The notes beneath the pieces are model-generated. The model did no database searches. It was not told the origin of the DNA and saw only the letters and a program-made list of their open reading frames with translations. A stretch of DNA of 64,000 bases from Candidatus Magasanikiibacteriota bacterium (GTDB lineage: Bacteria; Patescibacteriota; Patescibacteriia; Magasanikbacterales; GWA2-37-8). The DNA lies in assembly GCA_963840935.1 (NCBI GenBank), contig CAWJAS010000001.1, forward strand, positions 384,875-448,874, given 5' to 3'. Below are positions 26,020 through 64,000 of this stretch, in pieces. Every line of letters begins with the position of its first letter. Position 1 is the first letter of the stretch. The position numbers and the translations under genes are program-made.

Positions 26020-26092
26020 GCCGCCTTAGCTCAGCTGGCAGAGCAACACTTTTGTAAAGTGAAGGTCCTCGGTTCGAGTCCGAGAGGCGGCT
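26020..26092 (+). tRNA. tRNA-Thr (anticodon TGT)
   Basis: Manual fold: acceptor GCCGCCT/AGGCGGC, anticodon loop TTTGTAA, T-arm CTCGGTTCGAGTCCGAG; the first anticodon-stem pair is an A:A mismatch. Confidence 0.7.
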
Positions 26093-26105
26093 CGGATCGA
26101 AAAAT

Positions 26106-26229: not shown

Positions 26230-26394
26230 ATGCCATCCAAAGAAAGAGAGAACATGATTAAGTTGGAATGTTCGGAATGCAAGCGAGTGAATTATTTTTC
26301 TCGCAAAAATAAAAAACTTCTCAAGAATCGTTTGGAGTTGATTAAATATTGCCGACATTGCCGAAAGCACGTAATGCATAAAGAAACGAAGTAA
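26230..26394 (+). CDS. rpmG: 50S ribosomal protein L33 (54 aa; absent from supplied ORF track because <60 aa)
   Basis: Translation [54 protein letters not shown] has the L33 zinc-ribbon pattern; RBS-like A-rich leader. Confidence 0.9.
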
Positions 26395-26400
26395 AAAAGA

Positions 26401-26424
26401 ACGCGGGCTTCGCCTGCGTTTTTG
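26401..26424 (+). terminator. Rho-independent terminator after rpmG
   Basis: ACGCGGG-CTTCG-CCTGCGT hairpin followed by TTTTT. Confidence 0.6.
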
Positions 26425-26426
26425 AT

Positions 26427-26484
26427 GGGGGGTTCGTATAGTGGTATAAACCCGTCGCTCGCGAGCGACGGGTGTCTCCAAAAC
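26427..26484 (+). pseudogene. Truncated, diverged copy of the tRNA-Trp 5' part (acceptor, D-arm, anticodon loop) with a 22-nt GC palindrome replacing the 5' strand of the anticodon stem
   Basis: GGGGGGTTCGTATAGTGGTATAA aligns 17/23 to GGGAGCTTAGTTAAGTGGTATAA of the intact tRNA-Trp; GTCTCCAAAAC is identical (11 nt); CCCGTCGCTCGCGAGCGACGGG inserted between them; no T-arm. Confidence 0.55.
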
Positions 26485-26496
26485 AATCCAAATAGT

Positions 26497-26748
26497 ATGC
26501 ATTATGTGTATTTATTAAGAATAAGTGGAATAAAAAATAAAAATTATTATATTGGTTATACTTCTGATTTAAGAAAAAGAATGTTTGAACATTTGTCTGG
26601 CAACACAAAAACAACTTGCGATCGCAAACCGCAGTTATTATATTATGAAGCTTTTAGTGATAAAATATTAGCAATTAGACGTGAAAGAGGTTTAAAAAAT
26701 AGCGGGTCAGTGTATAATGCATTATTAAAAAGATTAGGGTTAAAGTAA
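26497..26748 (+). CDS. Mini GIY-YIG nuclease, UPF0213/YhbQ-like (copy 1 of 3)
   Basis: Start moved to ATG 26497; HYVYLLRISGIKNKNYYIGYTSDLRKRMFEHLSG is the GIY-(10)-YIG block with R and E/H catalytic residues; the track ORF's longer N-terminus overlaps the tRNA-like fragment. Confidence 0.75.
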   Translation: MHYVYLLRISGIKNKNYYIGYTSDLRKRMFEHLSGNTKTTCDRKPQLLYYEAFSDKILAIRRERGLKNSGSVYNALLKRLGLK

Positions 26749-26754
26749 TAATAC

Positions 26755-26825
26755 GGGAGCTTAGTTAAGTGGTATAACTACGGTCTCCAAAACCGTTGTC
26801 GGGGGTTCGATTCCCTCAGCTCCTG
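26755..26825 (+). tRNA. tRNA-Trp (anticodon CCA)
   Basis: Acceptor GGGAGCT/AGCTCCT, D-arm GTTAAGTGGTATAAC, anticodon stem ACGGT/ACCGT with loop CTCCAAA, T-arm GGGGGTTCGATTCCCTC. Confidence 0.85.
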
Positions 26826-26837
26826 CAAAAACAAAAA

Positions 26838-26869
26838 AAGCCCCGATATTATTCGGGGCTTTCTTGTTT
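26838..26869. terminator. Bidirectional rho-independent terminator (after tRNA-Trp; also serves convergent gene 26872-27450)
   Basis: AAAGCCCCGA-TATTAT-TCGGGGCTTT hairpin with an A-run upstream and a T-rich tract downstream. Confidence 0.6.
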
Positions 26870-33137: not shown

Positions 33138-33181
33138 ATATTAATAATAAAAACCCTGTTAAATAATTTAACAGGGTAAAC

Positions 33182-38280: not shown

Positions 38281-38308
38281 CAACACTTCACCCTAGGGTG
38301 AAGTGTTT
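38281..38308. repeat. 26-28-nt perfect palindrome AACACTTCACCCTAGGGTGAAGTGTT flanked by an A-run and a T-run (bidirectional terminator-like); copy 1 of 2
   Basis: Read directly; a near-identical copy lies at 43479-43508. Confidence 0.65.
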
Positions 38309-43301: not shown

Positions 43302-43478
43302 AAAACAACCCCTTACGGGGTGTTTCCAACCATGCATTCTATACTGGTTGTCCCAGTCACGCCACCGTCCGGTGACAGTTCGATATGCAGGTTTAGGTAT
43401 TTCCATTATAGCATAAAACTCGTAAAATTGGAATAGGTTTGTGTGTATAACTATATATTTATTTAATTTTAGCCAAAA

Positions 43479-48412: not shown

Positions 48413-48658
48413 ATGTATTATTTGTATATTGTTGAATGCGCCGATAAAACGTTATATACTGGAGTTACGGTTGATGTGGAAAGGCGCGTGCGCGAACATA
48501 ATAATTTGAAGCTTGGCGCAAAATACACACGCGCTCGACGGCCGGTGAAATTGGTTTACGTGAAAAAGTTTCGTAATCGCTCGCTTGCTTCCAAAGCCGA
48601 GTGCAAAATAAAAAATTTATCGCGCGAAGAGAAGTTGAAGATGATTAAAAATATTTAA
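48413..48658 (+). CDS. Mini GIY-YIG nuclease, UPF0213/YhbQ-like (copy 2 of 3; free-standing)
   Basis: YYLYIVECADKTLYTGVTVDVERRVREHN is the GIY...YTG...R...EH core; 81 aa. Confidence 0.8.
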   Translation: MYYLYIVECADKTLYTGVTVDVERRVREHNNLKLGAKYTRARRPVKLVYVKKFRNRSLASKAECKIKNLSREEKLKMIKNI

Positions 48659-62793: not shown

Positions 62794-63566
62794 TACCTTA
62801 TTTTTCTTGGCAAACAATAAGTTTGGGCCCGTTGACTTTTCAAGTTTGGGGTATTTTTGTTTCGCTCGGTTTTTTGGTTGCTTTGCTTTTGGGATTGCAT
62901 TTTGTGAAAAAAAGAAATTTAGATAAAGAAATTTTGACTGATTTATTTATTTGGCTATTACTTGGCGGGATATTGATGGCGAGAGTTTTCCATATTATTT
63001 TTTACGAACCCGCTTATTATATTAATTATCCTTCGGAAATTTTGAAATTTTGGAATGGCGGAGCCTCGTCGCTCGGTGGGCTTGTCGGCGCTTTTGCCGC
63101 GCTGTTGATTTATGCCAGAGTAAAAAAATTTAGTTTTAGAGAGTTTTTGCCATATGGCGATATTATCGGCCTTGTTTTTTGGCTCGGTTGGGGAATAGGC
63201 AGGATTGGTTGTTTTTTTATTCACGATCACCCCGGCAGATTAACTGACTTTTTTTTGGCGGTTAATTTTCCGTCAGGCGCGCGGTTTGATATGGGACTTA
63301 TGGAATCAATTCTTTCTTTTGCTATTTTTGCCGTTGTTTATGTTTTGTATAAAAAAATTCATAATACAATACCGGGAATGTCATTGCTTGCCGGTTTTTG
63401 GATATATTTTGCGGTTCGGTTTTTTATGGATTTTTTGCGCGCTGATGATTTGACTATGGCTGACGCGAGATATTTTTATTTAACCCCGGCGCAATGGGGG
63501 ATGGGAATATTATTTTTTACGTTGACGGCGTTGTATTTGCGTGTTAGAATGCGACAGCAAAATTAA
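62790..63566 (+). CDS. lgt: Prolipoprotein diacylglyceryl transferase
   Basis: Seven-TM profile; Lgt signature GRIGCFFIHDHPG and G-rich loop GGASSLGGLVGA. Confidence 0.85.
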   Translation: MIPYFSWQTISLGPLTFQVWGIFVSLGFLVALLLGLHFVKKRNLDKEILTDLFIWLLLGGILMARVFHIIFYEPAYYINYPSEILKFWNGGASSLGGLVGAFAALLIYARVKKFSFREFLPYGDIIGLVFWLGWGIGRIGCFFIHDHPGRLTDFFLAVNFPSGARFDMGLMESILSFAIFAVVYVLYKKIHNTIPGMSLLAGFWIYFAVRFFMDFLRADDLTMADARYFYLTPAQWGMGILFFTLTALYLRVRMRQQN

Positions 63567-63602
63567 CCCTGGAGGGTTCGCCTAGTGGTCGATGGCGCAC
63601 GT
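63559..63602 (+). repeat. Direct repeat copy 1 (44 bp: 12 bp upstream + first 31-32 nt of tRNA-Ser), identical to 63900-63943
   Basis: AAAATTAACCCTGGAGGGTTCGCCTAGTGGTCGATGGCGCACG read at both positions. Confidence 0.85.
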
Positions 63603-63659
63603 CCCGAAGGGACCCCCTTGGGGTCCCGAAGGGATCCCTTCGGGACTTGGAAAGCTTGT
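63571..63659 (+). pseudogene. Truncated tRNA-Ser copy (acceptor, D-arm, anticodon arm, start of variable arm) with a 45-nt GC-rich insert (63602-63646, including the perfect 24-nt palindrome GTCCCGAAGGGATCCCTTCGGGAC) in the 5' strand of the anticodon stem; no T-arm
   Basis: After the insert, CTTGGAAAGCTTGTAT matches the intact tRNA's CTTGGAAAGCGTGTAT; the sequence then diverges into the GIY-YIG ORF, whose ATG (63660) lies where the variable arm would be. Confidence 0.6.
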
Positions 63660-63926
63660 ATGAAATTTTATTTGTATATAATATTTAGTCAAAGCGCCAA
63701 TCGATGGTATGTTGGCTCATCGAATAATATACAAGATAGGTTAAGACGTCATAATTCCGGTAGTAGTAAATCAACAAAACCGTATTGCCCATGGGTACTG
63801 GCTTATTTTGAAGAGTACAATACTCGTTCTGAGGCCGTAAGAAGAGAATATTATTTAAAATCAACAAAAGGATATAAGGATTTATTAGAAATTAAATATA
63901 AAATTAACCCTGGAGGGTTCGCCTAG
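63660..63926 (+). CDS. Mini GIY-YIG nuclease, UPF0213/YhbQ-like (copy 3 of 3)
   Basis: Start set to ATG 63660: MKFYLYIIFSQSANRWYVGSSNNIQDRLRRHNSG has the GIY-YIG core; the stop codon TAG lies inside the D-arm of the downstream intact tRNA-Ser. Confidence 0.7.
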   Translation: MKFYLYIIFSQSANRWYVGSSNNIQDRLRRHNSGSSKSTKPYCPWVLAYFEEYNTRSEAVRREYYLKSTKGYKDLLEIKYKINPGGFA

Positions 63927-63996
63927 TGGTCGATGGCGCACGCTTGGAAAGCGTGTATACCGAAAGGTATCGAGAGTTCGAATCTCTCACCCTCCG
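63912..63996 (+). tRNA. tRNA-Ser (anticodon GGA), class II
   Basis: Acceptor GGAGGGT/ACCCTCC, anticodon stem CACGC/GCGTG with loop TTGGAAA, 16-nt variable arm TATACCGAAAGGTATC, T-arm GAGAGTTCGAATCTCTC. Confidence 0.85.
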
Positions 63997-64000
63997 CTTA

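Follow-up and report, generated by a model that had tools for sequence, protein, structure and literature searches.

Why should a gene for a predicted nuclease of 83 amino acids (aa) stand directly in front of a tRNA gene, and why should a broken copy of that same tRNA gene, with a GC-rich palindrome inside it, precede the nuclease gene? The question is raised by a locus between rpmG and the tRNA-Trp gene in a stretch of 64,000 nucleotides (nt) from a Candidatus Magasanikiibacteriota bacterium (contig CAWJAS010000001.1), the whole of which is called the window here. A sequence-only reading of the window had taken the locus for a member of a recurring class of elements, built of a degenerate tRNA-Trp copy, a palindrome, a GIY-YIG open reading frame (ORF) and an intact tRNA-Trp, and that interpretation is partly supported by the analysis below. 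The answer favoured, with confidence that is about evenly balanced, is that the locus is a compact selfish cassette of the homing type, encoding a predicted GIY-YIG nuclease, which inserted into or against the tRNA-Trp gene and regenerated a working tRNA.

Anatomy of the tRNA-Trp cassette

After the insertion, the ORF has upstream of it a displaced 5' part of the tRNA with a few bases of host flank, broken by one or more GC-rich hairpin modules, and directly downstream a complete tRNA on the same strand. In the AT-rich window (G+C 39%), which by its relatives looks patescibacterial, the displaced 5' tRNA-Trp fragment occupies positions 26420-26449 (+ strand) and consists of the 7-nt flank TTTTGAT and tRNA positions 1-23. 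A perfect GC-rich palindrome of 24 nt, ACCCGTCGCTCGCGAGCGACGGGT, follows at 26450-26473 (no strand assigned; 12+12 with zero spacer) and stands in place of tRNA positions 24/25-29. The displaced copy ends with the anticodon stem/loop remnant GTCTCCAAAAC at 26474-26484 (+), which corresponds to tRNA positions 29-39. A 12-nt spacer separates this remnant from the ORF (26497-26748, +), which encodes a single PF01541 domain of the UPF0213/Slx1-like branch in 83 aa. The working tRNA-Trp(CCA) lies at 26755-26826 (+; ARAGORN, Rfam 65.9 bits), and a terminator-like hairpin at 26837-26862 (+) ends the unit. The insert totals about 330 nt with this one ORF, between rpmG and an unnamed ORF that is followed by a histidine-kinase-like ORF. 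Every element of this layout was found where the sequence-only reading had placed it, with two corrections of detail: the fragment at 26427-26449 matches the first 23 nt of the window's own tRNA-Trp at 18/23 positions, not 17/23, and the palindrome, described as one of 22 nt, is real but perfect over 24 nt, with the 22-nt sequence as its core. The identity of GTCTCCAAAAC to the anticodon-loop region of tRNA-Trp (26783-26793) held at 11/11.

The same reading had named two outcomes that would speak against a tRNA origin of the fragment, namely silence of covariance models and a similarity within chance. The Rfam tRNA model indeed did not detect the fragment even at E<=10, as expected because it is half a tRNA with an insert, but the similarity lies far above chance. 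Gapped local alignment of the first 39 nt of tRNA-Trp with the 360 nt upstream gave a score of 19.3, against 8.9 +/- 1.25 (maximum 14.3) for dinucleotide shuffles, of which 0/2000 attained the observed value; the best score elsewhere in the 64-kb window was 13. No Rfam family was found on the fragment or hairpin region, either at E<=10 across 26380-26860 or at the gathering threshold in 20 related loci, which leaves this leader without an Rfam model. A known RNA motif, a group I intron and tmRNA were dropped as readings on that ground. A group I intron in the tRNA gene is further ruled out by the complete, uninterrupted tRNA that is present, and an integrase-mediated tRNA-targeting island by the lack of an integrase gene inside the insert of about 330 nt.

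The repeats at this locus had been described as older and diverged, a description that did not survive comparison with the related loci (which carry L numbers here) L002 and L003, whose nuclease is 83% identical to that of the window and whose layout is the same: fragment and hairpin are the conserved part, and the working tRNA-Trp is the changed copy. In L002 the upstream fragment is identical to the locus's own tRNA-Trp, including the 7-nt flank. Window positions 26420-26446 match the functional tRNA-Trp of L002 with its 7-nt 5' flank at 27/27 nt, on a background identity between window and L002 of 79.6% over 3.3 kb. Over the 65-nt block of flank, fragment, hairpin and loop remnant there are 2 mismatches to L002 (binomial P about 6e-5), and the 24-nt palindrome is conserved at 24/24. 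The two working tRNA-Trp genes agree at 56/72 positions, with compensatory changes in the stems; the corresponding figures for tRNA-Thr(GGT) and tRNA-Tyr are 74/74 and 83/83. The nearest matches of the window tRNA-Trp are found in other lineages (L113, 85%; L018, 82%), and the tRNA-Trp of L002 is closest to that of L085 (89%), the nearest relative with an empty site. Because the fragment matches L002 at 27/27 and the working tRNA is nearest to other lineages, the displaced fragment represents the native tRNA-Trp allele and the working gene a foreign-type replacement. The ORF itself, examined for a recombination breakpoint inside it, is about 92% identical to that of L002 in its first 80 nt and about 80% thereafter, in a region that also encodes the variable loop.

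The protein belongs to PF01541 with 47.6 bits (cut-off 22.6, E 2.1e-12), the match spanning residues 1-69. Residues Y3, Y5, Y18, G20, R28, H32, E51 and E63 are invariant in 15 sequences, and we take them to have the catalytic roles established for the GIY-YIG fold. The AlphaFold2 (AF2) model, with a predicted local distance difference test score (pLDDT) of 90.8, shows the beta-beta-alpha-beta-alpha core fold, with strands at residues 2-8, 17-22 and 46-53 and helices at 25-34, 56-68 and 70-79. The top Foldseek matches are 1ZG2 (UPF0213), Slx1, I-TevI and UvrC, with a template modelling (TM) score of 0.56-0.66 to Slx1, and profile searches of the PDB gave 1ZG2 (E 1.4e-14), 1YWL (1.2e-10) and Slx1 (3e-3). 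Neither the C-terminal RING domain nor the Slx4 partner of eukaryotic-type Slx1 was found, PF01541 being the only domain, and TIGR01453 reached 20.8 bits against a cut-off of 56. The ratio of nonsynonymous to synonymous substitution rates (dN/dS) against L002 is 0.14 for the ORF and 0.10 for rpmG, as expected under purifying selection. The ORF thus encodes an intact, selectively maintained, single-domain predicted nuclease of the GIY-YIG type. PADLOC returned no defence-system match for it, and PHROGs gave only marginal matches to phage endonucleases.

Upstream of the insertion the gene order is tRNA-Thr, tRNA-Thr, tRNA-Tyr and rpmG. The last of these encodes ribosomal protein L33 (26230-26394, +; PF00471 Ribosomal_L33, E 1.7e-18), is the left neighbour of the insertion site and is kept as the upstream neighbour in most loci of the Trp clade. 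RNA folding places a terminator-type hairpin behind it at about 26397-26423 (+), identical in L002, whose T-run, TTTTTGAT, continues into the displaced tRNA fragment. A promoter-like consensus match, TTTAAA-16-TATAAT, is present at 26691-26718, inside the 3' end of the ORF and about 37 nt upstream of tRNA-Trp. Elsewhere in the window, the Rfam DUF3800-IX RNA motif was found at 43324-43393 (-) with 46.3 bits (gathering threshold 36.8).

Filled sites, empty sites and other tRNA genes

Loci of relatives were sampled in a metagenome scan by alignment of rpmG, and thus independently of the nuclease, which yielded 37 rpmG-anchored loci; the same scan made with the neighbouring tetratricopeptide-repeat (TPR) protein gave no matches. 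In 18 of the 37, tRNA-Trp follows 2-154 nt after rpmG without any ORF, in 5 the gap holds other, unrelated genes, and in a single one (L098, on the same contig as L006) the nuclease is present. The claim that an insertion separates rpmG from tRNA-Trp is borne out by these data, since tRNA-Trp directly follows rpmG in at least 18 rpmG-anchored relatives, and a universal order of rpmG, GIY-YIG and tRNA-Trp, which would have spoken against it, was not found. The most direct comparison is that of two close relatives with virtually the same tRNA-Trp, the empty L107 and the filled L010. What L010 has in addition is tRNA positions -2 to 39 in a copy that holds one hairpin in its D-loop and another, bordered by a GTCTC repeat, in its anticodon loop, followed by an 11-nt spacer, the ORF and 4 nt. 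One of the 18 empty sites, L087, retains at 1648-1754 a relic 5' tRNA-Trp fragment of an allele unlike that of the resident tRNA and without an ORF, which looks like a decayed cassette. It is clear from these loci that the insert is present in some relatives and absent from others at an otherwise conserved rpmG/tRNA-Trp junction, with clean boundaries. Such polymorphism at a conserved site, a hallmark of homing genes, is seen in the 18 empty junctions, the one relic and the L010/L107 pair. Orthologous cassettes were also recovered in independent assemblies (L001-L008).

In the short rpmG tree, filled and empty loci are interspersed. Nuclease and rpmG identities correlate (r 0.56), and the tree is too short to resolve discordance between nuclease and host. 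The absence of secE-nusG, which had been noted along with the insertion, is not caused by it, as the genes 3' of tRNA-Trp vary in the empty-site relatives too and are not secE-nusG. In L006/L098 the GIY-YIG gene is separated from tRNA-Trp by a Cys/His-rich ORF of 147 aa (L006 3334-3777), which lacks any Pfam match and is HNH-like by eye only (DFDH...CANCH). MazG-like or DUF5674 ORFs occupy the gap between rpmG and tRNA-Trp in other relatives. Because different ORFs (the 147-aa ORF, MazG-like and DUF5674) are found in this same gap, it appears to be an insertion hot spot.

The generality of the arrangement was examined by scanning one genome per species with the Trp-clade alignment, which gave 76 loci with related small GIY-YIG genes, mostly in Patescibacteria and some in Omnitrophota, Bacteroidota and others. 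A tRNA on the same strand starts within +/-60 nt of the ORF stop in 30 of the 76, where the tRNA density of the flanks predicts 0.9. An adjacent same-strand tRNA on either side is found in 48/76 loci, an opposite-strand one in 1/76. With annotated tRNAs masked, an upstream partial copy of the downstream tRNA scored above every control region in 21 of 29 testable loci. Often the identity is complete (100%) and includes non-conserved flank, and most of the copies inspected are interrupted by modular GC hairpins; GC-rich hairpins are enriched 13-fold in the 200 nt upstream of the ORFs. In 10 of the 30 D-type loci the stop codon of the ORF lies inside the tRNA. The proposal of a recurring class of elements, as opposed to a one-off rearrangement, therefore stands, the layout having been found at many related loci. 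The same layout beside many tRNA genes in dozens of uncultured bacteria suggests a kind of selfish DNA, apparently not described before, that resides on tRNA genes.

The window itself holds a second cassette of the same architecture at tRNA-Ser(GGA) (63559-63997, +), as the sequence-only reading had noted from the order of its parts. It opens with a perfect repeat of 43 nt (63559-63601, +) that takes in the final 8 nt of lgt, the gene upstream, followed by a hairpin insert of 44 nt, or 2 x 22 nt (63602-63645, +), a 16-nt tRNA piece matching at 15/16 (63646-63661, +) and a GIY-YIG ORF (63660-63926, +; PF01541, 67.2 bits) whose stop codon lies inside tRNA-Ser(GGA) (63912-63997, +). Over 63900-63926 this ORF reads through the duplicated flank and stops at a TAG in the D-loop of tRNA-Ser; since the stop lies inside the tRNA, processing by RNase P would remove the stop codon. 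The hairpin sits in the anticodon-arm region at both window loci and throughout the Trp clade, in keeping with the shared insertion position that had been claimed. The third GIY-YIG copy that had been mentioned also exists, as an 81-aa ORF at 48413-48658 (+; PF01541, 64 bits, E 1.5e-17); it has neither an adjacent tRNA nor a hairpin and lies between an RF-1-domain (ArfB-like) ORF and a DUF333 ORF.

In a neighbour-joining tree of the nucleases, Trp, Ser(CGA/GGA), Met and Leu each had a clade of their own, and one further clade comprised genes with the tRNA upstream. With an identity of 26-32%, the Trp and Ser copies of the window are placed in separate clades, and the third copy groups with tRNA-less genes. 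Nuclease clades in this tree are thus specific for one tRNA identity, and to the question that had been posed, whether the copies track their tRNA or the genome, the answer indicated by the phylogeny is the tRNA. Mirror forms, in which the order is tRNA, ORF and displaced 3' part, were found at L018, L074 and L077. At L018 an intact tRNA-Trp is followed immediately by the ATG of the ORF and then by a 3' tRNA copy that is cut at the anticodon loop by the same palindrome family. The locus L077 (2240-2950, Bacteroidales) shows that a tandem arrangement also occurs outside Patescibacteria: a partial 5' copy of tRNA-Val with hairpin precedes the intact tRNA-Val and the GIY-YIG ORF, after which come a 3' partial copy with the same hairpin in opposite loop orientation and a repeat of the flank and the first ORF codons. 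In the tRNA-upstream clade (L056, L059, L060, L083, L039) tRNA and ORF are separated by a long spacer that is GC-rich and self-complementary (for example CACACTTCGCCAAGGC...GCCTTGGCGAAGTGTG) and that in L083 is found again after the next tRNA.

The hairpins are bound to the cassettes. Only two GC-rich palindromes with arms of >=10 bp exist in the 64-kb window, one at each cassette, and within these 64 kb they do not form a dispersed family of hairpin repeats with many copies. Three further perfect palindromes of 25-26 nt (911-936, 33153-33177 and 38282-38307) are of low or moderate G+C and unrelated to the cassettes. The palindrome core GTCGCTCGCGAGCGAC is common to L006, L013 and L016, with compensatory variants in other members of the clade, and a 16-nt core is the same in several lineages despite nuclease identities of only 63-66%. 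Changes on both sides occur in 8/10 stem pairs of the Trp clade, in sequences preselected as palindromes. The remnant GTCTCCAAAAC follows the hairpin in L002, L009, L010, L013 and L014, its shorter core TCTCCAAAAC does so in L036, and the hairpin is retained without tRNA-like flanks in L006, L011, L012 and L015. That the hairpin is conserved speaks against its being mere debris.

The modules are repeated at equal length within a locus (3 x 22 nt in L050, 2 x 38 nt in L048, 2 x 22 nt at the window Ser locus and 2 x 25 nt in L029). At about 2400-2500 of L050 a pseudo-tRNA-Ser is split into pieces of 7-10 nt by three exact 22-nt inserts of the type GGTC-N4-GACC. Most inserts lie in loops or junctions of the cloverleaf, in the Trp clade in the anticodon arm, and overall their positions vary among the D-loop, position 7/8, position 26, the anticodon arm and the T-loop. 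One family (L046, L063, L070, L076, L022) inserts at TTCG^AA, be it in the T-loop or in the anticodon loop, and a duplicated CG borders the insert at either end; the hairpin of the Trp family is bordered by the GTCTC repeat. The strands were compared for G-T pairs to tell an RNA hairpin from a DNA hairpin, but the 3 sense against 2 antisense cases, read by eye, do not distinguish the two. A fold-back (P-nucleotide-like) origin of the palindrome was rejected because its arms are not inverted copies of the flanks.

Selfish cassette, host gene or debris

On the homing-type explanation, the predicted nuclease would break an unoccupied tRNA gene around the anticodon arm, a target suggested by the position of the hairpin. 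Repair from the occupied allele would then copy in the hairpin and the ORF along with the part of the tRNA that is duplicated, in some cases together with the complete donor tRNA, and the host's own tRNA part would stay behind, displaced. The anatomy of hairpin, short remnant, ORF and replacement 5' part (3' part in the mirror forms) could be the product of such double-strand-break repair at the anticodon arm. The ORF has the native upstream region before it and an essential, single-copy tRNA gene behind it on the same strand, and for this reason may be co-transcribed with the tRNA; the nearly exclusive same-strand orientation and a junction that is tight or overlapping likewise suggest transcription with the tRNA. 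An ORF transcribed in this way would be hard to silence. The promoter-like match in the 3' end of the ORF is an alternative candidate source of tRNA transcription. As for the hairpin, it may mark and destroy the target in the displaced copy, or else break up the direct repeat, stabilise or regulate the transcript, or serve as substrate of a structure-specific nuclease.

Several observations weigh against this explanation. The 83 aa hold only the catalytic domain, with no other Pfam domain and a sub-threshold match to T5orf172 only, so that sequence-specific recognition is left unexplained; the DNA-recognition module that homing genes carry beyond the catalytic domain was not found. A regenerated tRNA would keep the presumed target, which leaves self-immunity without an explanation. 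The tRNA-Thr(TGT) gene of the window (26020-26093) matches that of L002 (2492-2565) at only 60/74 positions and has no nuclease gene alongside; replacement of a tRNA allele in these genomes therefore does not require a cassette. No relatives of the nuclease were found in viral contigs. Finally, the order of rpmG, GIY-YIG gene and tRNA-Trp is kept across deep lineages of Patescibacteria under purifying selection, and nuclease and rpmG identities correlate, which agrees with long vertical residence no less than with mobility.

Vertical residence is the core of an explanation in which the nuclease serves its host. The enzyme would act on tRNA, its precursors or branched nucleic acid at highly transcribed tRNA genes, absences would reflect loss, and fragment and hairpin would form a conserved 5' leader or operator concerned with regulation or RNA stability. 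The dN/dS of 0.14, the conservation of the fragment-plus-hairpin block far above background, the hairpins kept without tRNA-like flanks, the strict same-strand layout with tight spacing to the tRNA and the occupation of the same genomic site in deep lineages all agree with it. Furthermore, fusions of Slx1-like GIY-YIG domains with a tRNA methyltransferase of the TrmH type and with a COG4123 methyltransferase have been reported in prokaryotes (PMC1564403), as would suit a domesticated enzyme linked to tRNA. This explanation is nevertheless judged unlikely, given the patchy presence among close relatives, the many tRNA identities each with its own nuclease clade, the ORF stops inside the tRNA, and partial copies that are duplicated from the local tRNA and its non-conserved flank in both polarities, as befits a product of insertion and not the needs of a leader. 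A separate explanation moves the weight to the hairpins, whose GC-rich modules of about 19-25 nt would be the true cis sites of mobility, cut as hairpins or cruciforms by a structure-specific nuclease, loosely as in REP/RAYT and the GC-cluster or double-hairpin elements of mitochondria; or a circle would integrate by crossover within the carried tRNA fragment. Equal-length modules repeated within single fragments, the short duplications that border the inserts (CG at TTCG^AA, GTCTC in the Trp clade) and the two-sided stem changes, though in sequences selected as palindromes, are consistent with this, as is the fact that the closest solved relatives are UPF0213 and Slx1, a branched-DNA nuclease. 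A Campbell-type crossover would moreover predict partial copy, ORF and intact copy in both polarities. The modules, however, do not spread, being confined to the two cassettes of the 64-kb window, and a break at the element's own hairpin would favour loss of the element through annealing of the repeats, so that mobility directed by the hairpins seems quite improbable.

That nothing links the parts, the locus being a decayed tandem tRNA duplication to which a small unrelated ORF and unrelated palindromes were added, would agree with the tolerance of dead copies for insertions and with the variable positions of the hairpins (D-loop, 7/8, 26, anticodon arm, T-loop). It is strongly disfavoured by the recurrence statistics and hardly credible, as the three-part association is seen again in 21/29 testable loci that span several tRNA types and phyla, conservation of the block exceeds the background, purifying selection acts on the ORF and the parts are almost always on the same strand. 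Beyond the homing-type cassette that is preferred for the locus itself, a wider proposal may be put forward only tentatively and is rather doubtful: a minimal Slx1-like GIY-YIG nuclease and GC hairpins of about 22 nt could together form an unrecognised class of bacterial mobile elements that insert in the loops of tRNA genes and duplicate part of the tRNA to regenerate it. Their specificity would come from carried tRNA homology and nucleic-acid structure and not from a DNA-binding domain, and through them tRNA alleles would be replaced horizontally across Patescibacteria, Omnitrophota and Bacteroidota.

Relation to known systems

The literature searched, including recent surveys of tRNA introns in Patescibacteria and of ribosomal RNA (rRNA) insertions in the candidate phyla radiation (CPR), does not describe this architecture. 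If the homing-type explanation is true, the tRNA genes of free-living and episymbiotic bacteria would join the habitats of homing-type endonuclease genes, with a layout previously described only for protein genes of fungal mitochondria. Some members of a very large and uncharacterised family, the UPF0213-like GIY-YIG proteins that stand alone in bacteria, would gain a function or at least a life-style, and a route would be suggested for the exchange of tRNA alleles between lineages. The cassettes are also a source of hairpin-interrupted tRNA pseudogenes, which gene finders miss or possibly miscall. Enzymologists and tool builders would be interested in a nuclease this small (about 80 aa) with the possible ability to recognise a defined hairpin or tRNA-gene structure.

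By sequence and fold the best matches of the protein are UPF0213 (BH0048, 1ZG2; EF2693, 1YWL) and Slx1, which share with it the single GIY-YIG domain and the same conserved residues. The UPF0213 proteins are uncharacterised, and the third copy of the window, without tRNA or hairpin, is of this plain type; Slx1, unlike the window protein, has a RING domain and needs Slx4. The hairpins recall the GC clusters of mitochondria, which together with double-hairpin elements and repetitive hairpin-forming elements have been reviewed (PMC2800124). Both are short GC-rich single or double hairpins in AT-rich DNA, often in tandem and presumed mobile, but GC clusters are dispersed in many copies per genome whereas the modules here are confined to the displaced tRNA copy beside the nuclease. 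Islands and prophages that integrate into tRNA genes share with the cassette the target, the regeneration of the gene and the partial copy bordering the insert. They differ from it in that the cassette has no integrase, an insert of only about 330 nt, a duplicate made mostly of the 5' part with upstream flank, and hairpins.

In phage T4 the GIY-YIG homing endonuclease SegB is encoded in a tRNA gene cluster (PMC2330249) and promotes segmental amplification of anti-defence loci (PMC13096335). As in the window, a GIY-YIG gene thus lies among tRNA genes. SegB cleaves the DNA of a tRNA gene and causes the region to be inherited preferentially, and is in this way an example of a GIY-YIG enzyme that has tRNA gene DNA as its target. 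SegB is much larger than the window nuclease and carries DNA-binding modules; it is also phage-borne, and a hairpin-interrupted partial tRNA copy has not been described for it. In 'collaborative homing', known from cyanophage psbA, a free-standing endonuclease acts with an ORF-less intron that disrupts its target. The cassette resembles this system in having the nuclease gene beside a presumed target copy that is interrupted by a short structured insert; here, however, the insert is not a group I intron, and the interrupted copy is non-functional with an uninterrupted copy alongside.

The closest analogue is found in the mobile endonuclease ORFs (mORFs) of fungal mitochondria. These create gene hybrids, in Allomyces in atp6 and in Glomus in atp6, atp9, cox2 and nad3, with the native end displaced, a divergent inserted end that is functional, and an endonuclease ORF between the two (PMC3630166). 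As in the window, a free-standing endonuclease ORF (GIY-YIG in the case of atp9) is inserted in a gene, the cassette brings a replacement copy of the displaced gene end, and the native end is retained close by; no longer functional, this duplicate matches close relatives, in contrast to the functional end, which is divergent. The cassette differs from the mORFs in sitting on a bacterial chromosome, with a tRNA gene as its target, and in having a nuclease of just 83 aa that lacks any further domain. Moreover, what is displaced is usually the 5' part, with GC hairpins interrupting it, and the two copies are identical in most loci. The cassette is accordingly rated as belonging to a known kind, that of free-standing homing endonuclease genes carrying a replacement segment of their target, in which the tRNA and hairpin layout is new; should the hairpin modules prove to work with the nuclease in its mechanism, the cassette would go beyond a variant of such genes.

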